Below are positions 8,902 to 39,389 of a DNA stretch of 61,182 bases, in pieces. The notes below the pieces were generated by a model that saw only the letters and a list, made by a program, of their open reading frames with translations, had not been told where the DNA came from and made no database searches. The stretch spans positions 1 to 61,182 of the forward strand of contig CAIMEL010000008.1 in the NCBI GenBank assembly GCA_903840015.1. Direction: 5' to 3'. Every line of letters starts with the position of its first letter. The first letter of the stretch is position 1. The position numbers and the translations under genes were made by a program. The DNA is from an uncultured bacterium (GTDB taxonomy: Bacteria > Patescibacteriota > Dojkabacteria > SC72).

Positions 8902-10504
8902 AAGCCTCCAACCTCTCTTCTACTATATTGTTTCCCATAACTTGTACTATCTGATATAGATCTGGTGTCTTTGTTCTATGTGTTAAGGCAACTCTTAAAA
9001 CCATTGCAACATCACCAGGCTTACACTCTAACTTCTCTGCCAAATTCTTAATCTTACCAAACCACATATCAAGATTATCTGCGATATCAAATATCTTTGT
9101 ATATTCCTCAACTATTTTCTCTTGAAGATTCTTATCTACTCTATCAGAGATATCCTCCACTTCACTCTCAGCGAATGTACTATTAAAGAATATACTTAAT
9201 AGATCCTTGGCATCCTGATATTTAACCATATCCTTCCTAACCTTTGATCCTTCCCTTTCAATATTGAATATCTTAATACAGTAATCCTTATTCTCTTCTA
9301 ATACTTTTGCCGTATCCGTATCAAAGGATAATGCCCATTCTAAAACTCTTTCATACACCTCTTCTGCACTTAATGTTGCAATATACTCCTTACAAATATC
9401 ATTCAATTTAGTAATATCAAAAAGTGCTCCTGCATTATTAAATTTCTCTATCCTCAACCTAAATTCATCCAAACTCCTCTCTTTATTCTGCACCCTCCAA
9501 TCGTAGAAATTGGAGTTAGCAATATTCAAAAGATACTCCAAAACACCCTCTTTCGGATAGCCTCTTTCTACATAGTAAGAAACTGCAGCCTCCGGATCTT
9601 TCCTTTTACTCAATTTCCTTTTCTTACCCTCTTCAGACTTCATCAATGGAGACACATGACCATACGGTAATTGTTTAAAATCTAACTTCTCAAAAAGTTC
9701 ATAATGCAAAGGTACAGAGGAGAACCATTCATCACCTCTAATAACATGAGTAATACCCATCAAAGTATCATCTATCGGATGTGCAAAATGGTAGGTTGGG
9801 AAACCATCTGATTTAATCAATACTGCATCCATATCATTCTCCCTCAAAGTAACACCACCCTTGACTAAATCTTTCATAGCAAAACTATTTTCAATATTCC
9901 CAGTTGAGTACAATCTAATGACAAATTTTTCTTTTTTCTCTAACCTCTCTTTTATCTCACTCAAGCTAGCATCTCTCCACTTGGCCCATTTACCATAACA
10001 ACCTGTCCTCAGAGATGATTTCTCTTGTTCTTCTCTGATATTCTCCAATTCATCTAGTGTAAGAAAACATGGATATGCCAAGCCTTTCGAAACCATCTGT
10101 TTAGCAAAAACCTTGTAGATCTCTAACCTTTGGCTTTGTATATATGGACCATATGCACCAACTCCTACCTCTTCATCTACCATCCCTTCATCAAACACAA
10201 CTCCAAATCCTCTCAAACCATTAACTATCATAGAGACTCCTTTCTCTACCTCCCTTTCCTTATCGGTATCTTCTATACGAAGAATCGATATTCCATTACT
10301 CTGCTTTGCAAGTCTTGTACAAATCAAACCTGTATATACATTACCTATGTGCATAAACCCTGTGGGACTTGGAGCAAAACGTAAAACCATAGCTTCATCT
10401 GGAATATTCCTTTTGGGATATTTTGAGAAGATATCATCTACTGTGTCTGTAACATCTGGGAAAAGTAAATTTGCTAATTCAACATTCTCTTCGTTTGTTC
10501 TCAT
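8885..10504 (-). CDS. gltX: Glutamate--tRNA ligase (start moved to ATG 10504)
   Basis: RFAPSPTGFMHIGN, RIEDTD, GPYIQSQR, DGFPTYHFA, HVIRGDEW, KLSKR. Confidence 0.96.
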   Translation of the reverse strand: MRTNEENVELANLLFPDVTDTVDDIFSKYPKRNIPDEAMVLRFAPSPTGFMHIGNVYTGLICTRLAKQSNGISILRIEDTDKEREVEKGVSMIVNGLRGFGVVFDEGMVDEEVGVGAYGPYIQSQRLEIYKVFAKQMVSKGLAYPCFLTLDELENIREEQEKSSLRTGCYGKWAKWRDASLSEIKERLEKKEKFVIRLYSTGNIENSFAMKDLVKGGVTLRENDMDAVLIKSDGFPTYHFAHPIDDTLMGITHVIRGDEWFSSVPLHYELFEKLDFKQLPYGHVSPLMKSEEGKKRKLSKRKDPEAAVSYYVERGYPKEGVLEYLLNIANSNFYDWRVQNKERSLDEFRLRIEKFNNAGALFDITKLNDICKEYIATLSAEEVYERVLEWALSFDTDTAKVLEENKDYCIKIFNIEREGSKVRKDMVKYQDAKDLLSIFFNSTFAESEVEDISDRVDKNLQEKIVEEYTKIFDIADNLDMWFGKIKNLAEKLECKPGDVAMVLRVALTHRTKTPDLYQIVQVMGNNIVEERLEAYAKSL

Positions 10505-10545
10505 ATACAATTGATTATACAAGTAAGTATTGCTAAGATTATAGC

Positions 10546-11871
10546 ATGACATTAACAGAAGCAGCATTCTGGACAAAACGATTTGGAGTTATTGCACTAG
10601 GAGCAAGTATTGTTTTTGTAATTGTAATACTTGTTGTAACCCTCCAACCCAAAAAATATATGCCTCCTGAATATTTAACTGCAAACTTTGCATGTACGGA
10701 GAAAAGGGAGGAATTTTTGCAACATAAATTGGATATACCAGCCTTACAGCTGGCAGATGGCTCTGAGATGGTATTTGAGATTCTTACTGATACTGGAAAG
10801 ATAGATTCTTTACCCCAGATTATTAATGTATACAAATTTAATAATCCTACCCAGTCATTAAGTGCTCAGGCAAATGCAAAAATTCTTGCAAAGAAACTTA
10901 ACTTCAATCCTGATGACATCATTAGAAAAGACGCAGTAACGTATATCTGGATTGACAAACTTGGTAAAAGGAATCTTGAGATTCAGGCAAAGAATATGAA
11001 CTTTACATTTAAAACAGATCCTTCCGTTATAAAGAGTATTGCAGAGACAGGTCTTCTTCCTACTGAACAGGAAGCTAAAGCAAAAGCTGCAGAGATACTC
11101 CGAACCCTCAGTGTCTATTCTGATGACTACTCCAAAGGTACACACAGAACCACATATATCAATATTAATCCAGACGGTAGTTACAGCAAGGCATCTTCTG
11201 CTTCTGAAGCAGAATTGATAAGGGTGGATTTTGTAAGAAAAAAATCTATGATTACGATAGCATCAAATATTGTAGGTGCTGATCTCATGATACAGTCTCT
11301 AACAAAAAGAACAGGTATCGAACCTACACAGTCGAATATAATCGTTAATGACAAGAAAGTTGATGTATATACGTATGATACTGTGGTGACATTTCCTGAG
11401 ACGCAAAGATACAATGTATCTGTCTATGTAGGAGTTGAGGATAAGGAGAAAAGATCTGGAGGAAGCTCACTAAACAGTATCTATCAGATAGATTTTACAT
11501 ATTGGCCAATACAGGTTGAAGCGTGTGGTACATATGAATTAGTCTCTCCACAAAAAGCAATCGAAGAGGTACAAGCAGGTAAGGGTAAATTGGTCTACCT
11601 ATTCGATAAGAATGGAGATGATGTCGTCCCATACACCCCTAAACGGGTAAAGAAATTCATTGTGACTAAAGATATTTTCATTACATACTATGAATCACCA
11701 GACGAATTGGAGTACCTACAACCTGTATATGTGATATCTGGAGATGTTATTTTTGATAATGATATAAAAGGGACATTCGATTTTTACTACCCAGCAATTA
11801 ACTATGACATAGTCCAAGACAAAATAGAGCTCCCACCACCTGTTGTTGAGGAGAAAAGCTCTTGGCTTTAA
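10546..11871 (+). CDS. Single-pass membrane-anchored hypothetical protein
   Basis: N-terminal TM helix then a large soluble domain; C-terminal YYESP...YLQPVY. Confidence 0.75.
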   Translation: MTLTEAAFWTKRFGVIALGASIVFVIVILVVTLQPKKYMPPEYLTANFACTEKREEFLQHKLDIPALQLADGSEMVFEILTDTGKIDSLPQIINVYKFNNPTQSLSAQANAKILAKKLNFNPDDIIRKDAVTYIWIDKLGKRNLEIQAKNMNFTFKTDPSVIKSIAETGLLPTEQEAKAKAAEILRTLSVYSDDYSKGTHRTTYININPDGSYSKASSASEAELIRVDFVRKKSMITIASNIVGADLMIQSLTKRTGIEPTQSNIIVNDKKVDVYTYDTVVTFPETQRYNVSVYVGVEDKEKRSGGSSLNSIYQIDFTYWPIQVEACGTYELVSPQKAIEEVQAGKGKLVYLFDKNGDDVVPYTPKRVKKFIVTKDIFITYYESPDELEYLQPVYVISGDVIFDNDIKGTFDFYYPAINYDIVQDKIELPPPVVEEKSSWL

Positions 11872-15329: not shown

Positions 15330-15920
15330 TTATACAAAATCTTTAGATATCACAGAACAGAGATTTTCTACAAAACTATTTCTCAAGGTTTCATCTTCCC
15401 TGATATATCTAGCCACCTCTATCTGGATTGCTGGTATGCGTAATTTTGAGGCTACGAATTCTCCTAATGTTTTCTGCCCATTATCTGGGAAACGGAATAC
15501 TGAAACTGTAACACCCTTTAATTCTCCCTTACCTAACTCTTTTGCTATCTTCATAGCAATATTTCTAGAACGAGAGAATTTGGATGGATAATATATTCCA
15601 AAATCGTACATACTGTCATTATCCAAACCATGGATATCTACAAAAAGTTTTGGTTTAAATTCTGTAACCATTGTACGAATCTCTTGTTTGTAAGGATTAC
15701 TTTTTTCTGTGTGGAAATTTGCATCGTAATCTGTATCTTCGGTTATATAGATACCGAGACATTTCAATTTTTGACAAACATCTTTCACAATACTGTCTGT
15801 AAATCTCTCTCCAACCTTATACCCCATATTTAACTTAGGTCTTCTATGGGCATATACATGGGGAGCAGAAAGCAGGATAGGTTTTTTGCCTGTGATAGTT
15901 GTGATATTTGAGCAGTTCAT
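15330..15920 (-). CDS. N-formylglutamate amidohydrolase-like Zn hydrolase
   Basis: LSAPH, D.NF, VDIHG and IQIEV pattern shared with 38520..39389. Confidence 0.55.
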   Translation of the reverse strand: MNCSNITTITGKKPILLSAPHVYAHRRPKLNMGYKVGERFTDSIVKDVCQKLKCLGIYITEDTDYDANFHTEKSNPYKQEIRTMVTEFKPKLFVDIHGLDNDSMYDFGIYYPSKFSRSRNIAMKIAKELGKGELKGVTVSVFRFPDNGQKTLGEFVASKLRIPAIQIEVARYIREDETLRNSFVENLCSVISKDFV

Positions 15921-15998
15921 TACAAATAACTTACCATATATTGATGAGTGTTTTCAAATATGTAAGAATGTAGAAGATATAATTTAATATTTTTAAAT

Positions 15999-16619
15999 AT
16001 GAAAAAACTACTTAACATTATCCTGTTGCTAACTCTACTACTCACTCCAGTTGCTGTCTTCGCACAGGAAGAGGAAGATGTGATGCTTTACGGAGCACCT
16101 CAGGAAGAGGATGATTTAATGTTCTACAGTGCACCACAGGAAGAGGATGCTGTTGATGCCGTACCTTACACATCTGATGGTGAGTATGACTATGATTTCA
16201 ATTTTGAAAATTCAACCTTGCCCGCAGGGCTTGCAGAGGCATTGGGTGCAACAGGCATAATATTTGGAGGGATGATGATTCTGTTCTCTCTAGTTGTCTG
16301 CCTTGCCTTCTATGCTTATTTTGCCTTAGCATTGATGAAGATTGGAAAACATCTTAATTATGAAAACTCATGGTTTGCATGGATCCCCATACTTAACCTA
16401 GTAATGTTATTCCAACTTGGAGATCAAAATCCTTGGTATCTACTCCTCACATTAATTCCTGGTATTGGAGCTATCATTGTCGCAATACTTACAATTATTG
16501 CTTTGATGAATATCTGTGAGAAGAGAGGGTATGACAAATTGCTTGGATTACTCTACCTAGTACCAGTTGGAAATCTAGTACTTCTTGGTATATTGGCATG
16601 GGGTAAACAAGAGAAGTAA
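15999..16619 (+). CDS. Signal-peptide membrane protein (DUF5684-like) with acidic N-terminal repeats
   Basis: Signal peptide ending VFA; AWIPILNL...GDQNPW...LIPGIG...LVPVG pattern. Confidence 0.7.
   Translation: MKKLLNIILLLTLLLTPVAVFAQEEEDVMLYGAPQEEDDLMFYSAPQEEDAVDAVPYTSDGEYDYDFNFENSTLPAGLAEALGATGIIFGGMMILFSLVVCLAFYAYFALALMKIGKHLNYENSWFAWIPILNLVMLFQLGDQNPWYLLLTLIPGIGAIIVAILTIIALMNICEKRGYDKLLGLLYLVPVGNLVLLGILAWGKQEK
16065..16148 (+). repeat. 36-bp in-frame tandem repeat (2.3 copies)
   Basis: CAGGAAGAGGA recurs at 16065, 16101 and 16137; encodes QEEEDVMLYGAP/QEEDDLMFYSAP/QEED. Confidence 0.85.
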
Positions 16620-29251: not shown

Positions 29252-30010
29252 ATGGATAAAACATTTAGGAAATTAAGGATGTACAACATAATCGTTGGAT
29301 TAGTTCTACTACTCCAAGGTATTGTCATGTGGGCAATATCAAATGGTACGAAGGTAATGATTACTACAAATTACTTAAAGTGGAACAGTGACATTGGTTT
29401 CCCTGCCCCTGTACTAAACAACCTCTTCGAATTACAACTAGGTCCTGTTGTAGCACTATTCCTCCTTCTCTCTGGTATATTCCTTCTAGGTTCAGCATTC
29501 ATTTGGAGGAAGAAATATCAAGAACAGATTAGTAAAGGTATGAATCTCTTCAGATGGGCAGAGTATTCCATAACTTCATCCTTAATGCTTGTAGTAATTG
29601 CAACACTCTGTGGTGTATTTGATTTCTCTTCACTAATTCTCATCTTTGCACTAAATGCCTGTATGATATTCTTCGGTTGGGTTATGGAGACACATAATCA
29701 AAATACTAAGGAAGTTAACTGGACATCATATATCTTTGGTTGTTTTGCAGGATTAGTACCTTGGATTGTATTAGGTCTTTACTTCTTCAACGCTATCAAT
29801 TCTAATGCCGAATCAGTACCATCCTTTGTCTATGCAATATTCTGGAGTCTTCTCTTCTTCTTCAATATCTTTGCAGTTAATATGGTTCTACAATACAAAA
29901 AGGTTGGTAAATGGAAAAACTATATCTATGGTGAATATGCATATATCACACTATCATTAATAGCAAAGGCTCTACTTGCGTGGCAGGTATGGGGAGGTAC
30001 GTTGAGATAG
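29252..30010 (+). CDS. Heliorhodopsin
   Basis: 7 TM; NLFRWAEYSITSS (R101, E104), FGWVME, AGLVPW, YGEYAYITLSLIAK (Schiff-base K239); colinear with recalled HeR-48C12. Confidence 0.95.
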   Translation: MDKTFRKLRMYNIIVGLVLLLQGIVMWAISNGTKVMITTNYLKWNSDIGFPAPVLNNLFELQLGPVVALFLLLSGIFLLGSAFIWRKKYQEQISKGMNLFRWAEYSITSSLMLVVIATLCGVFDFSSLILIFALNACMIFFGWVMETHNQNTKEVNWTSYIFGCFAGLVPWIVLGLYFFNAINSNAESVPSFVYAIFWSLLFFFNIFAVNMVLQYKKVGKWKNYIYGEYAYITLSLIAKALLAWQVWGGTLR

Positions 30011-30020
30011 TGGAATCAAT

Positions 30021-31019
30021 CTAGAATAGCTTGAAGTAAAGGTATACCAGATAACAGATAAGGATAAAGAAACCTACAGGTTTTGTTAATATCTTGTTCT
30101 TTCCTAAGATCTTTCCCTCAGTCAAAATACTAAAGATAACAACAATATTTAGTAAATTAAACAGATACAAATCATCAGTTGCACCTTTAGTAAACATAAG
30201 GGGAGCTATCAATGCAGGAATACCCAAACCCAACCCTATATTAGCTATCGTACTACCAAATATATTACCCAAAATAATATCCGTATACCCCTTAAATGCT
30301 GACCTCACAGAAGTAACAATCATAGGCAAAGATGTACCTATACCAATTATCGTCAAACCAAGAACATACTCACTAATACCAAAATCCCTAGAGAATCTCT
30401 CTGTCATAAATGCCAACAAAACACTAAAACCGACAAGAAATATCATTCCAACAAATACTCTGGCATATACTGTCCACAAACTAATCTCCTCTGTAGCCGT
30501 CGAAGAGATTGTACTAGTATTAAGCTCAACCTGGTTCATATCATCATCCCCTAACTTTTCTCTCTTAGCATACTGGTAAAGGATATACAGCGTGATGATG
30601 TAAACAAGAAGAAGGAATAGACCCTCGATTCTACCCAGTGTACCATCAAACACAAAGCCAGTAAGAACTGCTGACAAAGCCAAAAAGATTGTAAGTTCTT
30701 TCTCAAAAACTTGATATTTCGTATTTATGGCAACTATCAATGCAGAAATACCCAATCCAAGCCCAACATTAACAAAATTAGTTCCAAGAGCATTACCAAC
30801 CACAACATCTGCACCATTTGAACTAAAACACATCATCGCAATATTAACAGCTATTGTTGGTAAACCAGTACCAAACGCTATCAACGTTGATGCTATAACC
30901 AAGTCGCTAATCTTCTTCTTTCGAGCAAAAATAACAGCTCCTTGCAATAACCATTCTGCTCCTAGGATAAGTAAAGAAAGAGAAACAACAATTATTAATA
31001 CATCAACTAAAATATTCAT
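30021..31019 (-). CDS. Ca2+/Na+ antiporter (YrbG/CaCA family)
   Basis: Two alpha repeats GTGLP...GNALGTN and GTSLP...GNIFGS. Confidence 0.9.
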   Translation of the reverse strand: MNILVDVLIIVVSLSLLILGAEWLLQGAVIFARKKKISDLVIASTLIAFGTGLPTIAVNIAMMCFSSNGADVVVGNALGTNFVNVGLGLGISALIVAINTKYQVFEKELTIFLALSAVLTGFVFDGTLGRIEGLFLLLVYIITLYILYQYAKREKLGDDDMNQVELNTSTISSTATEEISLWTVYARVFVGMIFLVGFSVLLAFMTERFSRDFGISEYVLGLTIIGIGTSLPMIVTSVRSAFKGYTDIILGNIFGSTIANIGLGLGIPALIAPLMFTKGATDDLYLFNLLNIVVIFSILTEGKILGKNKILTKPVGFFILICYLVYLYFKLF

Positions 31020-31160: not shown

Positions 31161-33368
31161 ATGGAAACAGACATGCCAGAGAAAAACGAAATAGGTCCTA
31201 GCTGTAGCGAATCTTTCACTACAACAGCAGAACAAAGACAACAACTCTCCTCAGAACTATTTGAACACGCATATAATATCTCCCACAGTGAAGACGATAT
31301 CTTTCTATGTGGAGAGACTGTTTCATCACTAATCACAGGAGCAGAAGACGATCAATCACGCTTTACCTTTTTAGGCGATTTCTATATAGAAGAAATCGCA
31401 AAAAGATATGGCTGTGAAATTACAGAAGAAGGCAGGGTAACTGTTGAAGAAGAAGGAAAGATGTTTGAGTTCATTGCAAGAGAAACATTCGAGAGAGAAT
31501 TCCAATCCTCACATCCATCTGAACGAATTCTCATGAGTAGAGATGGCGGGATAATAGACTATTTTAGAGATATTACCAATTTAAGTAAGGAAGAAATAGA
31601 AGAAATCTTTTCAGACAAACCTGTAAAGATTTTAGCTTTAGAAGCAATTGAAAGAGTTGGTCAACAGGTAAGAACAAATGGTTGGGTAGCAAAAGTTAGA
31701 AATCACGGTTCTCTTGTATTCATAGATCTCAGAGATTTCTCTGGAACAATACAATTAGTGCTAGACAAAGGAAGAGTACCTTTTGCAGACAAAATTGGTT
31801 TAGAGTATGTACTAGAAGCAAGAGGTTTAGTTAAAAAGCGAGAGGAAGGATACGAAAACCCTAAGATTCCAACAGGAGAAATTGAAATTGATGTTCAAGA
31901 TATTAGAGTTCTTAACGAATCCAAGACACCACCATTTCCTTTAGACAAAAGTGGAGAGAAGACCGATGAGAATTTGAGATTAGAGTACAGGTATATTGAT
32001 ATAAGGAGAGAGGCAGTAAGAGAGTTGATAGAAGCAAGACATAGACTTTTGATGCAGACAAGACTATGGTTTGATCAAAACGGTTTTACTGAAGTACAAA
32101 CTCCCCTACTTACAGTAAGTTCTCCAGAGGGAGCAAGAGACTATCTTGTACCAAGTAGACTTTACAATGGAGAATTCTATGCACTTCCACAAGCTCCACA
32201 ACAGTACAAACAGTTACTAATGGTCGGTGGAATGCATCGATATTTCCAAATTGCACCATGTTTCAGAGATGAAGATCCTAGAGCAGACAGACATTCAGGA
32301 GAATTCTATCAAATCGATGCAGAATTCTCATTCATAACTAGAAATGAAATTTTTAGAACTATTGAACCTTACTTTTTAGAAATAGCAAAGAACAGCAAAG
32401 ACAGAAGGTTACTACAGTACAGATTCCCTCGTATTCCATATTCTCAAGTCATTGAAGATTACGGCTTAGACAAACCTGACTTAAGATTTGAGATGTTACT
32501 AGTGGATCTTACAGAAGAATTTAGATCTTCTGAGATGCAGATATTCCAAGCTTCACCTTCAGTAAGAGCTATTGCTGTAGATAGGGAATTTACCAAAAAA
32601 GAGATTGAGGAAATTACAGAGAGAATGAGATTAGAAGGTGCAAAAGGATTAGCTTGGTTTTCATTGGATGAGGGACAGTTTGGTGGTAATATGGCCAAAT
32701 TCTTTAATACTGAATTACAAGAGTCAATCCTCAAGAAACTAAAAGCGAAAGGATACAGTATTAAAGGCAAACAAACTATTTTTGCATTCTCAGATGAATA
32801 TCCAAAAGCATCAAAATATGCAGGATTACTAAGATCGCAGATGGGTGATTTACTCAAATTAAAAGATCCAACTGTATTAGCATTTGCATGGGTTGTAGAT
32901 TTCCCAATGTTCGAATGGGATGAGAAGGGTCAGAAATGGGACTTTGGACACAATCCTTTCTCAATGCCAAAAGGTGGATTAAAAGCCTTAAGAACAGAGA
33001 AACCAGGAGAAATATCAGCAGAGCAATTTGACTTGGTATGTAATGGTTATGAACTTGCAAGTGGTTCCATTAGAAATCATGACCCTAAGACATTCATAGA
33101 GGCATTTAAAATTGTAGGATATTCAGAAGAAGAAACAAGATCTAGATTTGGTCATATGATTTCTGCATTTGAATACGGAGCTCCACCACACGGAGGATTT
33201 GCTATTGGATTTGATAGATTTATGATGTTGCTCTACGGTATTACAAATATCAAAGATGTATATGCATTCCCAAAAACAAATGCAAAGGAACTCATGACAG
33301 GAGCACCAAGACGTGTACCACAGGAAGATCTAGATGTTTTGGGAATTACAATCAAGGGGAAAAAATAG
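31161..33368 (+). CDS. aspS: Aspartate--tRNA ligase (likely non-discriminating) with ~155-aa N-terminal extra domain
   Basis: GWVAKVRNHG..FIDLRD, PEGARDY, LPQAPQQYKQ, FRDEDPRADR, GYELASGSIR, GAPPHGG; His in RNHG and Gly in EEGYEN match ND-AspRS. Confidence 0.93.
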   Translation: METDMPEKNEIGPSCSESFTTTAEQRQQLSSELFEHAYNISHSEDDIFLCGETVSSLITGAEDDQSRFTFLGDFYIEEIAKRYGCEITEEGRVTVEEEGKMFEFIARETFEREFQSSHPSERILMSRDGGIIDYFRDITNLSKEEIEEIFSDKPVKILALEAIERVGQQVRTNGWVAKVRNHGSLVFIDLRDFSGTIQLVLDKGRVPFADKIGLEYVLEARGLVKKREEGYENPKIPTGEIEIDVQDIRVLNESKTPPFPLDKSGEKTDENLRLEYRYIDIRREAVRELIEARHRLLMQTRLWFDQNGFTEVQTPLLTVSSPEGARDYLVPSRLYNGEFYALPQAPQQYKQLLMVGGMHRYFQIAPCFRDEDPRADRHSGEFYQIDAEFSFITRNEIFRTIEPYFLEIAKNSKDRRLLQYRFPRIPYSQVIEDYGLDKPDLRFEMLLVDLTEEFRSSEMQIFQASPSVRAIAVDREFTKKEIEEITERMRLEGAKGLAWFSLDEGQFGGNMAKFFNTELQESILKKLKAKGYSIKGKQTIFAFSDEYPKASKYAGLLRSQMGDLLKLKDPTVLAFAWVVDFPMFEWDEKGQKWDFGHNPFSMPKGGLKALRTEKPGEISAEQFDLVCNGYELASGSIRNHDPKTFIEAFKIVGYSEEETRSRFGHMISAFEYGAPPHGGFAIGFDRFMMLLYGITNIKDVYAFPKTNAKELMTGAPRRVPQEDLDVLGITIKGKK

Positions 33369-33369
33369 C

Positions 33370-34653
33370 CTACTTTAATCCTTTCAATGCAGCTTCGACA
33401 TCCATTGGCCTAGCTTTGGGATAATTGCATATATACTTTCGAATATCTCTAGATGCTACCGGATTTTTTGCGATATATAGGTATATATTTCTCCAAGCGA
33501 AATCGGTATAGAGCTCTTGAGCTTTACTGTCATCAGAGTAACATATCAATCTCCAAAGGGTCTTTGCCTTAACACTCGTATTATTAGCAATTCCATACAA
33601 AACATACCAATCATATGGATTATGCAATGCCAAAGAATCAAGTAATTTCGAATCATTTGTCGCATATGCCGCAACCACTCGACATATCTCTCCCCTATTT
33701 AGAACACTATCTTTCAAACAAACTTTTTTACTACTCTCCAAGAAAACATCGTAAAGGTAATTCACATCCTGAGGATCTAACTCCTCACATGCCATATCCA
33801 AGGCTATTTTCTTAAGGGAATCATACAGCAACAACGCGAACTTTTTGTTATCCCTCAAGGAGAGAAAGAGTTCTTCCTTTGTAATCATAAGATCTTTAAC
33901 AACTCCCCCTATCAGTTCCTCCTCTAAAACATAAACTTCCTTCTTTGCAACCCTCTGAAGAGAATTCCTTATACCCAACAAAACATCAAAACTTTCAATA
34001 GCCTTTTTCACTATCTTCTCATCTAAAAATCGATTAACACTAAGATATTCAAATGCATCAACAGTACTATATATATCAAAATCCGACTTTATATAGTTGG
34101 CAAGAAGATGTACAAAACCATAGTACTTTATTCTACCCTCTCCAAATTTGATATTTCTATCATTAAACATATTTGGATATGCGAATTCTAAATTAGCACA
34201 AATATGAAAAATCTCGCGAAGATTATTTCTCGAATCCTTCCGAATCTTTTCTGCCATCTTCGTATTATGATACCCATACTCTTTACGCAAGAAGAGCAAC
34301 GCTTGTCTATCCGTACCATCGATCTGAGCCAATCTCTGTAATTCTCTAATTGTATAAACTTCCAATATATCTAATCGATGAGATGGTAAGAGATACTGAA
34401 CTTCCTTTTTAAAGAGTTCAATCTTTCTCTTTGAGGGTCTTTTACTTAAAATTATCAAATCCAAATCAGAAAAAGGGCCCATCTCTCGACGAGCTACCCC
34501 ACCCCAAGAGAAGAGTGAGTAATCTTTTCCTTCAAAATACTTTTTAAAAATATTTAAACATACAGACAACACATGTTCTGTAATATTCTTTGATTCCTGT
34601 ATTCCTGAGATTCTACTATCAGTTTTATACAATTGATTGTCCACCATCAACAA
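33370..34653 (-). CDS. GlnD-like nucleotidyltransferase lacking HD/ACT domains
   Basis: WGGVARREMGPFSDLDL (GG.x.R...SDxD), NIKFGEG, SFDVLLGIRNSLQ; helical-repeat tail (IANN.., IAKNP). Confidence 0.75.
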   Translation of the reverse strand: MLMVDNQLYKTDSRISGIQESKNITEHVLSVCLNIFKKYFEGKDYSLFSWGGVARREMGPFSDLDLIILSKRPSKRKIELFKKEVQYLLPSHRLDILEVYTIRELQRLAQIDGTDRQALLFLRKEYGYHNTKMAEKIRKDSRNNLREIFHICANLEFAYPNMFNDRNIKFGEGRIKYYGFVHLLANYIKSDFDIYSTVDAFEYLSVNRFLDEKIVKKAIESFDVLLGIRNSLQRVAKKEVYVLEEELIGGVVKDLMITKEELFLSLRDNKKFALLLYDSLKKIALDMACEELDPQDVNYLYDVFLESSKKVCLKDSVLNRGEICRVVAAYATNDSKLLDSLALHNPYDWYVLYGIANNTSVKAKTLWRLICYSDDSKAQELYTDFAWRNIYLYIAKNPVASRDIRKYICNYPKARPMDVEAALKGLK

Positions 34654-35368
34654 CTATATCAGCCCCATGAATATATGAGGCTTTAGGGGAAATTAAAAAC
34701 TCTACAATACCTGCTATATCTTTTGGCAAACCTAAACGACAAAGAGGGATACGACTCTTTAAGAAATCCGTATCCTCATACTTTTTCAACATCTTTTCCC
34801 TATTCCTATCAACAAGAATACAACCAGGAGAAATACTATTTACCCTTATATTGTATTCCCCAAGTTCAGTGGCTAATACCCTTGTCAGAGAAGCTATTGC
34901 ACCTTTGGTTGAAGCATATGCCGTCTGACCTTTAATCCCCAAACGAGCACTTATGGATGCAATATTAACAATATTACCCTTACCCAATTTTTTCATTTCT
35001 GGCACTACTGCCCTTGAGAAAAGGAAATATCCTCCCACATTTGATTTAAAGGTATTTGTGAAAATATCATACTCGGTTTCTTCTACATTGAAATATGGAA
35101 CAACACCAGCACAATTCACCAAAGTATCAATCTTTTTGTATTTCTTGACTACCTCTTTAACAAAAGATATTACATCCTCTTCAACTCCACAGTCTAATTT
35201 CCTGACAAAAAGCGTCGCTTTCTTGAAAACGGATTTAATCTTGAGAATTCTTTCATTATTGTCACAAAGACACAATACATTTCCACTCTTATCAAGACCC
35301 TTGGCTATTCCAGATCCTATACCTCCAGCAGCACCTGTTATTATGATGACATTATTTGAAGTTTTCAT
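34625..35368 (-). CDS. Classical SDR oxidoreductase
   Basis: TGAAGGIG, LVNCAG, IASIS, YASTK, RVNSISPG, VDGG. Confidence 0.93.
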   Translation of the reverse strand: MKTSNNVIIITGAAGGIGSGIAKGLDKSGNVLCLCDNNERILKIKSVFKKATLFVRKLDCGVEEDVISFVKEVVKKYKKIDTLVNCAGVVPYFNVEETEYDIFTNTFKSNVGGYFLFSRAVVPEMKKLGKGNIVNIASISARLGIKGQTAYASTKGAIASLTRVLATELGEYNIRVNSISPGCILVDRNREKMLKKYEDTDFLKSRIPLCRLGLPKDIAGIVEFLISPKASYIHGADIVVDGGQSIV

Positions 35369-35798
35369 TTTCTATCTCGAGAATCTTTTCTATTTTAACT
35401 TTTGAACCTTCATTTATCGCATATTCCTTAACCCAGGTTTCAACAATACTTTTCGCATCCTCTATTCCTGTTGTTAATGCACCCAAGGTCAATATGTTTG
35501 CGTCATTGCTTGAGCGAGATTTTAATGCTGCATAGACACTATGACAAAGTGTTGCACGAATACCCTTAATCTTATTCGCTGAAAGACACATACCCATACC
35601 TGTTCCACAAATTAGAATTCCCCTGCTATCTTTTGTGACAAGCACTTTTTGACACACCTCTTTTGCAACATCTGGATAGTCTGGAAGATTCTCAAAATCA
35701 TCTATCTTCTCCACTTCGTGATTGAGAGATCTTAGATATTCGTATATCGTATCTCTGTAAGTAACACCTGACTGATCAGAGCCTAAGAATATTTTCAT
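35352..35798 (-). CDS. RpiB/LacAB-family isomerase with degenerate phosphate site
   Basis: GSD, DYPD, GILICGTG.G...ANK..GIRA, NDAN..L.LG. Confidence 0.85.
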   Translation of the reverse strand: MKIFLGSDQSGVTYRDTIYEYLRSLNHEVEKIDDFENLPDYPDVAKEVCQKVLVTKDSRGILICGTGMGMCLSANKIKGIRATLCHSVYAALKSRSSNDANILTLGALTTGIEDAKSIVETWVKEYAINEGSKVKIEKILEIENENFK

Positions 35799-37042
35799 AG
35801 TAGGTTTTGTAAATAATTTGAAGTTTTTAAAATATCATAACCTCCCTCAACCGGTTTTAAAATCGCTTCAGGTTCTACATTTGTATGTTCCCTTCTACCT
35901 CTACCTGTAACTACCATATATATTACATCTTCTTTGTTAATCTTGCCTGCCTTTGCTAACTTAACCAACCCAGCAAAAGAGATATATGGACTTTTTTCAT
36001 CTTCGTAAGAAAGCTCCATACCTTCTTTTCTTAGAGCATTCTCGAAAATATCCCTTATACTTTCTACCTCTTCAATACTACTTGATTCTATACTACCGAA
36101 GGTACCATCAACCGCTTGTTTTACAGCAGAAAATGTCTTAAGAGGATTAGTACTCTGTAAAGTCTTTTCGTAAGGAAGTTGAGGAAGCTTTAGATCTTTC
36201 TCCGAAATACTATCTAATCCATTCTGATATGCAGTTGTAATTGTACAGTTGTCATCAACTTGCAGAGCATAAATACGAGGGATTAAATACTTTCTGTCAG
36301 TAATTCCATTCATCTTCATTCTCTTATGCCCTAACAAGAAGCCTAATATACCATATCCACCAGCGATAGTTTGTGCAAAGATAGTTGCATTTGGAACTTC
36401 TTCGTACTGTTCATATGCAATGGTTGCTTTTCCTTCCAATTTCTCATGCATTGGGGCTACTACCTGGATATTATTCTTTGCGGCAAATAGTTTTGCTATG
36501 CTACTCACTTGATTGAAATGCCCATCTACAGCAATAATGTGGATCATATCTCCCAACATTGTACTGTCACACTTTTCCATACAACTTAGAGGCAAAAAGA
36601 AGAAAGTTTCAATACCTGCGCTTTTAGCATATCTACAGTATGCTCTTCCCGTATTACCAGTTGAATGACAAACCATTTTCTTCATCCCCAATTCTTTTGC
36701 TTTACTGATAATATAGGAAGCCTCCCTGTCCTTGAATGTTCCAGTAGGATTCTCTCCTTCGTATTTACAATACAGTTGGGCAAAGTTTAAATATTTCTCT
36801 AGCTCAGGAATCCTTTTTACAAAGGTTCTACCCTCACCTAAAGAAACAATGTTTGAATAGTTGTTTACTGGAAGAAGGTTGAAATAGCGCCACATATCGC
36901 CTCTTTGTAAGTATTCCTCGTTACCCTGCTCGACAGATGATTGTAATTTGTATTCAAGATTTTCTTTTGAGATGAAGGCCGACAAATCTTCCTGATTTCC
37001 ATCAGGATCTAAAAGCAGAAATTTGCTCGCAAAGCCTTCCAT
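35795..37042 (-). CDS. Threonine-synthase-like fold-II PLP enzyme
   Basis: MWRY..LLP, SLGEGRT, KYEGENPTGTFKDR (PLP Lys), STGN, EGKAT, VTGRG. Confidence 0.88.
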   Translation of the reverse strand: MEGFASKFLLLDPDGNQEDLSAFISKENLEYKLQSSVEQGNEEYLQRGDMWRYFNLLPVNNYSNIVSLGEGRTFVKRIPELEKYLNFAQLYCKYEGENPTGTFKDREASYIISKAKELGMKKMVCHSTGNTGRAYCRYAKSAGIETFFFLPLSCMEKCDSTMLGDMIHIIAVDGHFNQVSSIAKLFAAKNNIQVVAPMHEKLEGKATIAYEQYEEVPNATIFAQTIAGGYGILGFLLGHKRMKMNGITDRKYLIPRIYALQVDDNCTITTAYQNGLDSISEKDLKLPQLPYEKTLQSTNPLKTFSAVKQAVDGTFGSIESSSIEEVESIRDIFENALRKEGMELSYEDEKSPYISFAGLVKLAKAGKINKEDVIYMVVTGRGRREHTNVEPEAILKPVEGGYDILKTSNYLQNLL

Positions 37043-37126
37043 AAGGCGAATTATACTATTAGAACAAGGTTTTGTAAACTATATACCATCCCAACAGGTG
37101 AAGACCATCGAAGGGAGATTCTTCGT

Positions 37127-37636
37127 TTAGTTCTGTACTATATATTCTCGTTCTGCTGAAATACTTTCCAAATTATCATCTACTGCATTGTAAACTGTCA
37201 TAGTTAATACTACTCTCAATTTCCCTACCTTATCCATCAAGGTTGAAGTAAAACCACAAATCTCCTTTGATTCTCCACTTAATACACCGGAGGTATCTTG
37301 CTCCTTATACAAAGCTTCTTTGTTGTTTTCATTTAGATAGAATTTCCAATTACATCTAACCAAATTGGCATATTTACCATTACCCTCCACGAGAGCATTG
37401 TACATTCTGGCCTGTCTTGGCATGATAATGTCTTCTTCGGGACCAATAATTGTCAACTTAAGATTATGTTCAATTGGCTTTTCTTCAGGAAACAACCCTT
37501 CTTCATATGTGCTCTCTGATTCCTTTTGTTGATCCTCCACAGGGGAATTGTTCTGTTTGATGACCCAAAATATCACCCCAGACAAAATCACAAGAATAAA
37601 AACCACGATAACCAAGATTTTAGATTTTTTTTGCAT
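37127..37636 (-). CDS. Single-pass hypothetical protein
   Basis: N-terminal TM then a beta-rich domain. Confidence 0.7.
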   Translation of the reverse strand: MQKKSKILVIVVFILVILSGVIFWVIKQNNSPVEDQQKESESTYEEGLFPEEKPIEHNLKLTIIGPEEDIIMPRQARMYNALVEGNGKYANLVRCNWKFYLNENNKEALYKEQDTSGVLSGESKEICGFTSTLMDKVGKLRVVLTMTVYNAVDDNLESISAEREYIVQN

Positions 37637-37698: not shown

Positions 37699-38523
37699 AT
37701 GCTTCTTTACAACAAAGTAACAGAATTAGTATATGATCAATTTCTCCTTCTATTCCTGCTCGAAATCGTAGTTCTACTCTTCGCAATAATACTTTTCAAG
37801 AAGAAGCTAAGCTTCAAAACAATCCTCTTCTCTTCCATTATCGCAATCGTCATATCTCTACTCAGTATGATTATCGTCAATGGCTTCTACGGTGGTATGG
37901 CATACCATGAAAGATTTGGTTGGCCATTCCCATTCCAATGGACATCCGGGAGTATTGATGAAATTGCCACACCTTGGGGATTACGATTCGAACCATGGAA
38001 ATTCCTTGCAAATACAATCTACTGGGGTCTGTTACCCCTCACAATACTTCTAGAAATATACTCAAAACAGAAAAGTAAAAAGTATCAACTATTCATTGTT
38101 GCTTCTCTAACAATATATATCATACTAACTATACTCTTCTCTTGGTCTAACAATCGGAATAACTTTGAGGTAGAACCACATCAGATATCAGAAACAACTA
38201 CAGAGGAAAATACAATCATAGATATTGATTTAGCGAAAAGAAAACAGGAGACTTTAGAGAAAGAATTCCCTGAATTTAAAGGGTTTGAAAAAGCCTCCAG
38301 TTTTGCAGGAGTATCAGTTAAAATCCAAGAAGAAGGGAGTGATCATTACTATGCATATATTCTTCATGGGAGTGGTATTCCAATACTTAAAGCCACATGT
38401 TTTAGAGTAGACAGAATGTTCAGAGTTTTTAAGATTGGAGAATTTCCAGATATGTTAGATTCATACATTGGGTATATGGATATAGATGCGAGAACTTGTG
38501 GTGGTATAAAAGGCGATGACTAA
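37699..38523 (+). CDS. Multi-pass membrane protein with C-terminal exported disulfide-type domain
   Basis: About 4 TM helices, GWPFPF motif, then ...KATCFRVD...IDARTC. Confidence 0.65.
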   Translation: MLLYNKVTELVYDQFLLLFLLEIVVLLFAIILFKKKLSFKTILFSSIIAIVISLLSMIIVNGFYGGMAYHERFGWPFPFQWTSGSIDEIATPWGLRFEPWKFLANTIYWGLLPLTILLEIYSKQKSKKYQLFIVASLTIYIILTILFSWSNNRNNFEVEPHQISETTTEENTIIDIDLAKRKQETLEKEFPEFKGFEKASSFAGVSVKIQEEGSDHYYAYILHGSGIPILKATCFRVDRMFRVFKIGEFPDMLDSYIGYMDIDARTCGGIKGDD

Positions 38524-39389
38524 ACTGCGTATCCATTTACAAAATCCGAAAGATCTTTTACTAATTTAGGACCAAGAATCTTAGCTTCCTCTCCTTCTCG
38601 AAATCTATTGGCCACTTCAATCTGTATAGCATTGACCTCTGATGTCCTAGAGTGATGCCTAGTAGTAAAATCTCCTGCGAAACAGTCATCCATTTTTCCA
38701 TCCACTGGGTTGATACCAGGAATAAAAACGGAATACCCTCGTTCTCTCAAATACTCACCCATTACAATATCAACATCACCGTAAAGAATACTCCCCCTAT
38801 TTCCCGTTCCGAGTATCAAATCATATCCATTAGGTACAGGTGCATACTCAGGTTGTTCAGAGAAACCATGCAGATCTAAAAGTAGAACTTTTTCATTACC
38901 AAATGCATCTATACCAATCTTCAATAAATGCTCAATCATTTCGTGGTAGGCAAGATATGCTGTAGAGAGTCTTTCATCATCCAATGCGGATGTAGAACCG
39001 AGTTGTGTATGTTGGTAGTAGTTTACTGGGTCAGGCCAAGACCGATTGTAATCTAAATATTTACGTGGCATAAGGCCTCTAATTGCACTGGCATCTTCTG
39101 TAGAGCTCAGTATTCCTGTTGCAATCGGCCAAACCTTTCTGTCACGCACAGTTCTCGCAGATTCTCTTTGAGAGAGCATACTTCCAAACAAACCGGAAAA
39201 CCCAACCCCATCATGAGGGACAGAAATTACAACCTTGTTAGGTTTTTTAGATTTAAGCACTAAACAGAAAGATTCTTGAAAAGCTTCATGATTATCCAAC
39301 TCAAACACTCTAGCACCACTTTCACACCTATTTTCTATATCTTGATATTTGAAATCGAGTTTAACAAAACATCTTAAATATATTGCCAA
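38520..39389 (-). CDS. N-formylglutamate amidohydrolase-family protein (start uncertain)
   Basis: ISVPHDG, DYNR, YHEMI, LDLHGF, DLILGT, FAGDFTT, IQIEV. Confidence 0.75.
   Translation of the reverse strand: MAIYLRCFVKLDFKYQDIENRCESGARVFELDNHEAFQESFCLVLKSKKPNKVVISVPHDGVGFSGLFGSMLSQRESARTVRDRKVWPIATGILSSTEDASAIRGLMPRKYLDYNRSWPDPVNYYQHTQLGSTSALDDERLSTAYLAYHEMIEHLLKIGIDAFGNEKVLLLDLHGFSEQPEYAPVPNGYDLILGTGNRGSILYGDVDIVMGEYLRERGYSVFIPGINPVDGKMDDCFAGDFTTRHHSRTSEVNAIQIEVANRFREGEEAKILGPKLVKDLSDFVNGYAV

Follow-up and report, generated by a model that had tools for sequence, protein, structure and literature searches.

A contig of 61,182 bp from an uncultured bacterium of the Dojkabacteria (GenBank: CAIMEL010000008.1), referred to here over its whole length as the window, carries four overlapping minus-strand genes that end beside aspS, the gene for aspartyl-tRNA synthetase (AspRS). 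The four genes encode a fold-type II pyridoxal phosphate (PLP) enzyme of the threonine synthase (ThrC) family, an isomerase of the RpiB/LacAB family, a classical short-chain dehydrogenase/reductase (SDR), and a nucleotidyltransferase that we designate NTL. An initial annotation, made from the sequence alone, considered these genes to be an orphan operon and aspS to be a mere boundary. Neither description holds. The gene set is conserved in about 30 loci, where in larger genomes it is attached to non-ribosomal peptide synthetase (NRPS) or polyketide synthase (PKS) genes, and AspRS flanks 14 of the 21 loci that contain NTL. What this analysis observed directly is the gene set and how it is conserved, together with the altered active sites of its enzymes, the fold of NTL, and the linkage to AspRS. 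Judged by sequence comparison, the enzyme families are already known and the novelty would lie in their combination, in the altered active sites, and in the coupling to AspRS.

The features of the operon and its immediate neighbour are as follows.

35795-37042, minus strand: gene 1, ThrC-family fold-type II PLP enzyme, 415 amino acids (open reading frame with Pfam and NCBIfam matches, PALP/ThrC-like)
35352-35798, minus strand: gene 2, RpiB/LacAB-family isomerase, 148 amino acids (LacAB_rpiB by Pfam and NCBIfam)
34625-35368, minus strand: gene 3, classical SDR, 247 amino acids (Pfam and NCBIfam)
33370-34653, minus strand: gene 4, NTL, nucleotidyltransferase, 427 amino acids from a TTG (NTP_transf_2 and a weak GlnD_UR_UTase match)
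37050-37078, minus strand: promoter-like site TTTACA-17-TATAAT, sigma-70-like with 11 of 12 matches
31161-33368, plus strand: aspS, bacterial-type aspartate-tRNA ligase with a GAD domain, ending in TAG and convergent with gene 4

The overlaps between the genes of the operon are 4, 17, and 29 nt, and the open reading frames and the Pfam and NCBIfam matches agree with the families proposed in the initial annotation. A single base separates the aspS stop from the reverse complement of the gene 4 stop, as had also been described. The likely start of NTL is the ATG at 34647; M3 is invariant and all of the homologues begin there. The last overlap is then 23 nt. The promoter-like site is the strongest sigma-70-like site of the region and its -10 box ends 7 nt 5' of the ATG of the first gene. 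No Shine-Dalgarno sequence was found 5' of this ATG, which, together with the short distance from the -10 box, fits a leaderless start. However, promoter-like matches in the region are in total not above shuffle expectation, and the leaderless promoter of the initial annotation is retained as a plausible candidate, not a proven one. The window contains a gene for an extracytoplasmic function (ECF) sigma factor, which marks it as bacterial DNA, and its AspRS is closest to that of a Candidatus Saccharibacteria MAG, so that a CPR (Candidate Phyla Radiation) origin is reasonable. An Rfam scan of the window found no element besides tRNAs.

Distribution of the module and its linkage to AspRS

How widespread is this gene set? 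About 20 close relatives, at 54-79% identity, were recovered when the PLP enzyme was used as the query in a homology search. The wider family, at 30-41% identity, includes Parcubacteria, Nomurabacteria, DPANN metagenome-assembled genomes (MAGs), Desulfonema, cyanobacteria, Chloroflexi, Planctomycetes, and several actinomycete genera. The neighbours of the compared loci, which are labelled with L- and P-numbers, were mapped with profile hidden Markov models of the cassette proteins. In about 30 non-redundant loci, of two architectures, the PLP enzyme recurs together with the SDR, its most constant partner across loci. The NTL-type (n = 21) consists of the PLP enzyme, the SDR, NTL, and either the RpiB-like protein or ribulose-phosphate 3-epimerase (Rpe). 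The TIM-type (n = 9) is without NTL and consists of the PLP enzyme, the SDR, and a homologue of triose-phosphate isomerase (TIM), often accompanied by an IMPase-family phosphatase (loci including L004, L011, L015, L017-L020, and L024).

Gene order in the NTL-type loci is PALP-RpiB-SDR-NTL in the window, L001-L003, L013/L129, and L126, where PALP is the PLP enzyme. It is AspRS-PALP-Rpe-SDR-NTL in L130-L132 and L135, SDR-NTL-PALP-Rpe in L006, L022, L042, and L136, and RpiB-SDR-NTL-PALP in the actinomycetes (L005, L010, L027, L031, and L040). The flanking genes vary among loci, and the same cassette is present both in metagenomic contigs resembling the Candidate Phyla Radiation (CPR) or DPANN and in actinomycetes. 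The module is conserved and horizontally mobile. This co-occurrence elsewhere bears out the suggestion in the initial annotation that the four genes are a functional unit.

Domain fusions are also present, comprising PALP-RpiB-like (L025, 7854-9521), Rpe-kinase-PALP with a PRK-like kinase similar to phosphoribulokinase or uridine kinase (L030, 2881-5658), Rpe-PALP (L029 and L034), and P-loop kinase-like-PALP (P0102 and P0110). The PLP domain is in this way tied to enzymes of sugar-phosphate metabolism and to kinases. The Parcubacteria loci run on into Rpe and transaldolase genes. Phosphatases recur as well, in L003, L131, and the actinomycetes, and as IMPase in the TIM-type loci; the Desulfonema and Scytonema loci have the order PLP-SDR-IMPase-TIM. 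Nucleotide hydrolases (MazG-like, NUDIX, and 2H phosphoesterase) are found once each beside cassettes and lend weak support to a nucleotide-containing metabolite. In L131, a Fic/DOC-domain protein fused to a MarR-type domain is encoded on the minus strand at 2331-3395, just 5' of an AspRS-PALP-Rpe-SDR-NTL-HAD-methyltransferase operon.

NRPS or PKS megasynthases abut the cassette in 11 loci. In actinomycetes the cassette is preceded by a megasynthase with the organization formyltransferase-A-T-KS-AT-KR-ACP; this NRPS-PKS context is the usual setting for a biosynthetic cluster with a target-copy gene. The trio of PLP enzyme, SDR, and isomerase also recurs beside NRPS genes with neither NTL nor AspRS. 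Beside two TIM-type cassettes the NRPS adenylation domains have non-standard but mutually similar codes, DSALIAEVW and DGASVAEVL (positions assigned by reference to the GrsA sequence). Taken together, the trio beside NRPS genes and the unusual adenylation codes suggest that the trio makes an unusual alpha-amino acid, with a common amino acid and a ketose phosphate as the probable starting materials. The loading-module adenylation domain of the actinomycete megasynthases, which has a formyltransferase domain before it, carries the code DAWQFGLID (L010, about 1650-2100; L031, about 540), which we take to be a Gln-type code.

A class-II synthetase was the only recurrent extra gene of the NTL-type loci when neighbours were clustered. 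All of the linked AspRS copies tested score above the NCBIfam AspRS equivalog cut-offs and all have the anticodon-binding domain. In the 14 non-redundant NTL-type loci the AspRS gene is within about 2 kb of the cassette, compared with none of the nine TIM-type loci. Likewise, none of 160 generic AspRS loci, including those of the two closest relatives of the window AspRS, has the cassette within 7-9 kb. The genome scan for a second AspRS of Dactylosporangium, in which the matches listed were mostly Streptomyces housekeeping genes, contributes to this comparison as a negative control only.

The placement of AspRS relative to the cassette is not constant. It is convergent with the cassette in the window, L128, L027, and L040, leads the operon in L129-L132 and L135, is downstream of the cassette in L001 and L003, is upstream with a RelA/SpoT gene between in L126, and follows P450 and HAD genes in L010. 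In addition, the linked AspRS are of two non-orthologous types, bacterial (with or without the GAD domain) and archaeal (L001/L133 and L023). Given these varied orientations, the two AspRS types, and the absence of AspRS from TIM-type loci, shared ancestry of gene order cannot explain the link. Since AspRS is present at NTL-type and not at TIM-type loci, it goes with NTL and not with the PLP enzyme, SDR, and isomerase trio per se. AspRS is the most informative partner of the module, and because the module usually adjoins its gene, the product of the module probably acts on or with AspRS.

Several of these loci have features of their own. The RelA/SpoT homologue of L126 (2278-3735, with HD, RelA_SpoT, and TGS domains; also in L127 and L134) is located between AspRS and the gene for the PLP enzyme, with its end 4 nt short of the latter, which ties the module to stringent-response genes in one lineage. 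There are two archaeal-type AspRS genes in L133, at 9473-10756 and 15330-16604, which are 4.5 kb apart and encode proteins with 38% identity to each other. In the copy more distant from the cassette, QSCQ replaces QSPQ, and motif 2 is NESRQFD where the other copy has NEYVGLD. In Dactylosporangium the linked AspRS has at most 77% identity to any named Micromonosporaceae AspRS and is, on this comparison, probably an extra copy. A bacterial-type AspRS is immediately upstream of the cassette on the 5.4-kb contig L013 from a Candidatus Ainarchaeum MAG, which was assigned to a DPANN archaeon by binning; either AspRS and cassette were transferred as a whole unit or the binning is in error.

The window contains only one AspRS gene. 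Its product has approximately 155 extra N-terminal residues (31161-31628) that have no Pfam or PADLOC match and are absent from its closest relatives, which are 67% and 64% identical over residues 156-733. These residues may be a real appended domain or the result of an over-extended start. When the closest AspRS loci were compared to define the cassette as an insertion, no other flanking gene was found in common.

Enzymes of the module and other genes nearby

Is the PLP enzyme a threonine synthase? The initial annotation had argued that it is not, and comparison with curated models agrees. Against the best ThrC model, NF006050, it scores 138.9 bits where the cut-off is 303, and against TIGR00260 it scores 93 bits with a cut-off of 167. 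Scores against cysteate synthase are also far below the cut-offs (TIGR03844, 72 bits, cut-off 325; NF053679, 24 bits, cut-off 600). The best match to a solved structure is the ThrC of Thermus thermophilus (1uim, E 4e-27). The PLP lysine motif FKDRE and the carboxylate loop HSTGNTG are retained, aligning with K61 and S84-T88 of 1uim, and FKDRE and the S-T-G-N-T loop are invariant in 24 homologues of the PLP enzyme. In the ThrC fold this loop binds the substrate carboxylate.

The phosphate site is different. The sequence N-S-x-N-P-x-R-x-E-G-Q-K-T, common to all five solved ThrCs, is A-P-M-H-E-K-L-E-G-K-A-T in the window enzyme, and the loop P-V-G-N-A-G-N, readable in the four bacterial solved ThrCs, is T-I-A-G-G-Y-G. 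The N-S..R and N188 of ThrC are thus exchanged for A196-P197..K201 and G229, of which A196, P197, and G229 are invariant in 24 family members. We take N154, S155, R160, and N188 of the T. thermophilus enzyme to be the residues that bind the phosphate of O-phosphohomoserine, roles that were reportedly described by Omi et al. 2003. With the phosphate site replaced in this way, the most likely substrate is an alpha-amino acid whose distal group is different and probably larger. Retention of the alpha-carboxylate loop favours an alpha-amino-acid product over an amino-polyol with no carboxylate. Among the Pfam-annotated genes of the approximately 30 cassette loci there are no thrB-like or hom-like neighbours. 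From its sequence the PLP enzyme is assigned to a distinct subfamily that is not ordinary threonine synthase; plain threonine synthesis is rejected on the scores, which are below every ThrC equivalog cut-off, and on the loss of the phosphate-site residues.

The RpiB-like protein also departs from its canonical family. It passes the broad PRK05571 model (152 bits, cut-off 135) and falls below the rpiB equivalog TIGR01120 (129.5 bits, cut-off 138.65). Asp8 and Cys-Gly-Thr are retained, with ICGTG conserved. However, His10, His98/99, and the R-H-x-x-R phosphate clamp are missing, with the replacements GSDH to GSDQ, EHND to SSND, and GGRHATR to NEGSKVK, and the identical losses are present in all nine cassette copies. 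In canonical RpiB, His10 and His99 function in ring opening and R-H-x-x-R in clamping the phosphate. The alignment therefore places the RpiB-like protein in a divergent, cassette-specific subfamily that is not predicted to be a standard ribose-5-phosphate aldose-ketose isomerase; the initial annotation had cited the aldose-ketose interconversion known for RpiB-family enzymes. A housekeeping RpiB of the pentose-phosphate pathway is rejected on the loss of the catalytic and binding histidines and the clamp from all cassette copies. The SDR has an intact cofactor motif, TGAAGGIG (TGxxxGIG), and the catalytic residues S...YASTK (YxxxK), with a score of 184 bits against PF13561. That the enzyme is NAD-type is indicated by the Asp with which beta-2 ends.

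NTL has a Pol-beta fold with the motif G-S-x9-D-L-D, followed by a probable helical domain of the GlnD/GlnE type and a conserved C-terminal domain of helical repeats. From CPR to Streptomyces, neither the nucleotidyltransferase motif nor many positions of the C-terminal domain show any change. The structure model (predicted local distance difference test score 88.9) was searched with Foldseek, which returned the N-terminal domain of GlnE (E 9e-5, template modelling score 0.49), DrrA (9e-4), the C-terminal domain of GlnE, and then aminoglycoside adenylyltransferases. On the strength of this confident model, NTL is predicted to be an adenylyltransferase of the GlnE/DrrA type. Its match to PF08335 (GlnD_UR_UTase) is 18.5 bits, under the cut-off of 21, with a weak match also in L042, and it scores 31.5 bits against the GlnD model TIGR01693, where the cut-off is 519. 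The family is rare, with 25 representatives at E<1e-30 among 1.84 billion, and none of the NTL homologues has an informative name.

Other genes are present around the operon and aspS. Directly upstream of the operon there are a small predicted membrane or secreted protein with no assigned family (37127-37636, minus strand) and a gene of the N-formylglutamate amidohydrolase family (38520-39389, minus strand), neither of which recurs beside the cassette in other loci. A heliorhodopsin gene (29252-30010, plus strand; PF18761, 302 bits) adjoins a gene of the Na+/Ca2+ exchanger family (30021-31019, minus strand), which is notable in what is probably a Saccharibacteria-like genome.

Proposed product and alternative explanations

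What might the module make? We suggest, tentatively and with rather less than even confidence, that it makes an alpha-amino acid derived from a sugar phosphate, which NTL nucleotidylates to give an aminoacyl-adenylate-like ligand of AspRS. Here we infer the substrates, the order of the steps, the nucleotidylated product, and its action on AspRS. There would be five components: the ThrC-like PLP enzyme, the NAD-type SDR, a supplier or isomerase of a ketose phosphate (RpiB-like, Rpe, or TIM), NTL, and, usually adjacent, AspRS. The starting ketose phosphate would resemble ribulose-5-phosphate where RpiB or Rpe is present and dihydroxyacetone phosphate where TIM is present. Through beta/gamma elimination-replacement, the PLP enzyme would join or remodel an alpha-amino acid and the sugar-phosphate-derived fragment. 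The isomerase and SDR would adjust the hydroxy-carbonyl part, and an HAD or IMPase phosphatase, where present, would remove the phosphate. NTL would then move a nucleoside monophosphate, probably AMP, onto a hydroxyl of the new amino acid. The phosphodiester so formed would be a stable mimic of an aminoacyl-adenylate that AspRS binds, and the effect would be either inhibition, the linked AspRS being an immune or target copy, or regulation of AspRS. Because AspRS tracks NTL, only the nucleotidylated form should matter to AspRS, as expected of an aminoacyl-adenylate analogue.

A small undescribed pathway with a nucleotidylation step, as the initial annotation had put it, is the most economical reading of these genes. 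Of the product classes given there, an amino-polyol is disfavoured by the retained carboxylate loop. Products that may be considered are 5-hydroxy-4-oxonorvaline-like or polyhydroxy amino acids, conjugates of ribitol phosphate or glycerol phosphate, and bulgecinine-like prolines. Alternatively, NTL or a kinase may merely install a leaving group for the PLP enzyme. A further possibility, which we consider doubtful, is that the O-nucleotidylated sugar-derived amino acid represents a new natural class of aminoacyl-adenylate mimic that targets AspRS. In actinomycetes it would be an antibiotic elaborated by the NRPS-PKS; in episymbiotic CPR bacteria and DPANN archaea it would serve either as a weapon directed at hosts or competitors or as an internal brake that slows translation and feeds into the stringent response.

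A number of observations weigh against an AspRS-directed nucleotidylated amino acid. Seven NTL-type loci have no AspRS nearby, and no exporter is consistently linked to the cassette across the mapped loci. The module has no aminotransferase. The closest folds to NTL, GlnE and DrrA, modify proteins, so its acceptor could be a protein. The window AspRS is 67% identical to that of a Candidatus Saccharibacteria MAG that has no cassette; it looks native by this comparison, the lineage's own gene and not an imported resistant copy. The AspRS linked to the cassette in actinomycetes (L027, L040, and L010) share no substitutions at positions invariant in 80 housekeeping copies. Searches of the literature for the gene combination, for ThrC-like enzymes in clusters, and for AspRS self-resistance found no description of the module and no characterised homologue, with microcin C and general reviews as the only relevant matches. 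A review of aminoacyl-tRNA synthetase (aaRS) gene duplication, searched for AspRS, contains no report of such a link [PMC9437257].

Could AspRS instead be an enzyme of the pathway? It would then supply Asp-tRNA(Asp) or enzyme-bound Asp-AMP for the module to transform or transfer. The lead position of AspRS in the operons of L130-L132 and L135, in the last of which it abuts the PLP gene, fits this idea, as do the native character of the window AspRS and the probable dedicated extra copies in large genomes and on L133. Analogues exist in PSTK/SepSecS, SepRS/SepCysS, GatCAB, and the dedicated SerRS VlmL of valanimycin biosynthesis, and the fusions of P-loop kinase and PLP domains resemble the logic of PSTK with a PLP enzyme. 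However, the cassette has no conserved aminoacyl-transferase of the FemX, GNAT, or DUF2156 type, and known tRNA-dependent conversions offer no role for its constant sugar-phosphate isomerase or epimerase and its SDR. The TIM-type loci operate without AspRS, and action of a ThrC fold on aminoacyl-tRNA is not known. We regard this explanation as unlikely. The protein-modifying activity of the nearest folds raises another, which we judge decidedly unlikely, in which NTL is a GlnE/GlnD-like regulator whose protein target (AspRS, the PLP enzyme, or other) is adenylylated or uridylylated on a metabolite cue and the other three genes are the route under NTL control. Both of the best structural matches, GlnE and DrrA, are protein AMPylators, the weak Pfam match is to the helical domain of GlnD_UR_UTase, the C-terminal helical repeats resemble a protein-binding domain, and there is a RelA/SpoT gene within one locus. 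Regulation is harder to reconcile with the translational coupling of NTL between the SDR and PLP genes in actinomycete biosynthetic clusters, or with a C-terminal domain that is invariant at many positions from CPR to Streptomyces, yet stands beside AspRS of two unrelated architectures. Kinase domains also stand in for NTL in distant relatives, which fits activation of a substrate better.

If the direction of the pathway were reversed, the module would degrade an imported hydroxy-amino or glyco-amino acid by PLP-dependent elimination, isomerisation, and oxidation into the pentose-phosphate pathway, with NTL and AspRS incidental or regulatory. The NAD-type SDR suggests oxidation, the Parcubacteria loci extend into Rpe and transaldolase genes, and CPR are generally known to rely on scavenging. 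Catabolism is very unlikely in our estimation. It conflicts with the 11 loci in which the module is embedded in NRPS/PKS clusters and with the non-standard adenylation codes beside TIM-type cassettes, there is no consistently linked transporter or kinase, and it leaves the AspRS linkage unexplained. Finally, these might be housekeeping genes adjacent by chance: threonine synthase, pentose-phosphate RpiB, an unrelated reductase, and an unrelated nucleotidyltransferase. The top family matches are indeed ThrC and RpiB, and the RpiB-like protein passes PRK05571. Given the substituted active sites of both enzymes described above, a gene order that is kept across phyla despite unrelated flanks, and the existence of domain fusions, chance adjacency is hardly credible, and plain housekeeping functions are effectively excluded. 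Two specific systems were also considered and rejected. PADLOC defence-protein models gave no significant match, and there was no ThiF-family match in the four proteins, as would be required for a microcin C-like system.

If the proposal of an AspRS-directed nucleotidylated amino acid is correct, this would be the second natural chemotype directed at AspRS after microcin C, which is the only natural AspRS inhibitor in the literature searched. Three long-known enzyme families, ThrC, RpiB, and GlnE, would gain new reactions, and the module would be among the few testable secondary-metabolite or regulatory pathways in CPR and DPANN. To our knowledge, almost no specialised metabolism has been described from CPR and DPANN genomes. 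Carriers that can be cultured include Kitasatospora acidiphila, Streptomyces sp. L2, Actinoplanes rectilineatus, Dactylosporangium sp., and Desulfonema magnum. As the module is small (4-6 genes) and has such carriers, the hypothesis is directly testable. Even if the AspRS idea fails, the cassette would mark an unassigned amino-acid building block that the NRPS clusters of several phyla use.

Comparison with known systems

The PLP enzyme shares its fold-type II family, its PLP lysine motif, and the S-T-G-N-T loop with ThrC and cysteate synthase. It differs from them in being far under their cut-offs and in having A, P, K, and G in place of the ThrC residues that hold the phosphate. Unlike ThrC, it is always accompanied by an SDR and a sugar-phosphate enzyme and was never seen here with thrB or hom. 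NTL resembles GlnE/GlnD and Legionella DrrA in its nucleotidyltransferase core and, probably, in the helical domain that follows. In contrast to GlnE/GlnD, it is only about 420 amino acids with a single nucleotidyltransferase domain, has no HD or ACT domain and no second nucleotidyltransferase, and has a distinct conserved C-terminal repeat domain.

Another comparison is with the azasugar cassette GabT1/Yktc1/GutB1, in which a PLP enzyme (a class-III aminotransferase), an IMPase-family phosphatase, and a dehydrogenase act on a ketose phosphate. The same combination of PLP enzyme, IMPase-family phosphatase, and dehydrogenase is present in Desulfonema and in Scytonema. However, the PLP enzyme of the module has the ThrC fold and the carboxylate loop, so that an alpha-amino acid, not an iminosugar, is the expected product.

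Genes for aaRS are known from clusters in which they confer self-resistance, as with the SerRS of albomycin, the IleRS of mupirocin, the ThrRS of borrelidin, and the LeuRS of agrocin 84, and also from a biosynthetic role, as with the SerRS VlmL of valanimycin. As in these clusters, the module places a full-length and, by prediction, apparently functional aaRS gene beside enzymes of small-molecule biosynthesis, with probable extra copies in large genomes and two AspRS on one contig (L133). The differences are that the aaRS here is AspRS, that the set of ThrC-like, RpiB-like, SDR, and GlnE-like nucleotidyltransferase genes matches no described cluster, and that minimal CPR genomes, too, contain the module and may have no copy of AspRS besides the linked one. 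With microcin C, a peptidyl aspartyl-adenylate mimic, the likeness is conditional: if the hypothesis is right, both would be non-hydrolysable conjugates of nucleotide and amino acid that act against AspRS. The module has neither the ThiF-like MccB nor a precursor peptide nor phosphoramidate chemistry, and a nucleotidyltransferase of the Pol-beta fold would instead form an O-linked phosphodiester.

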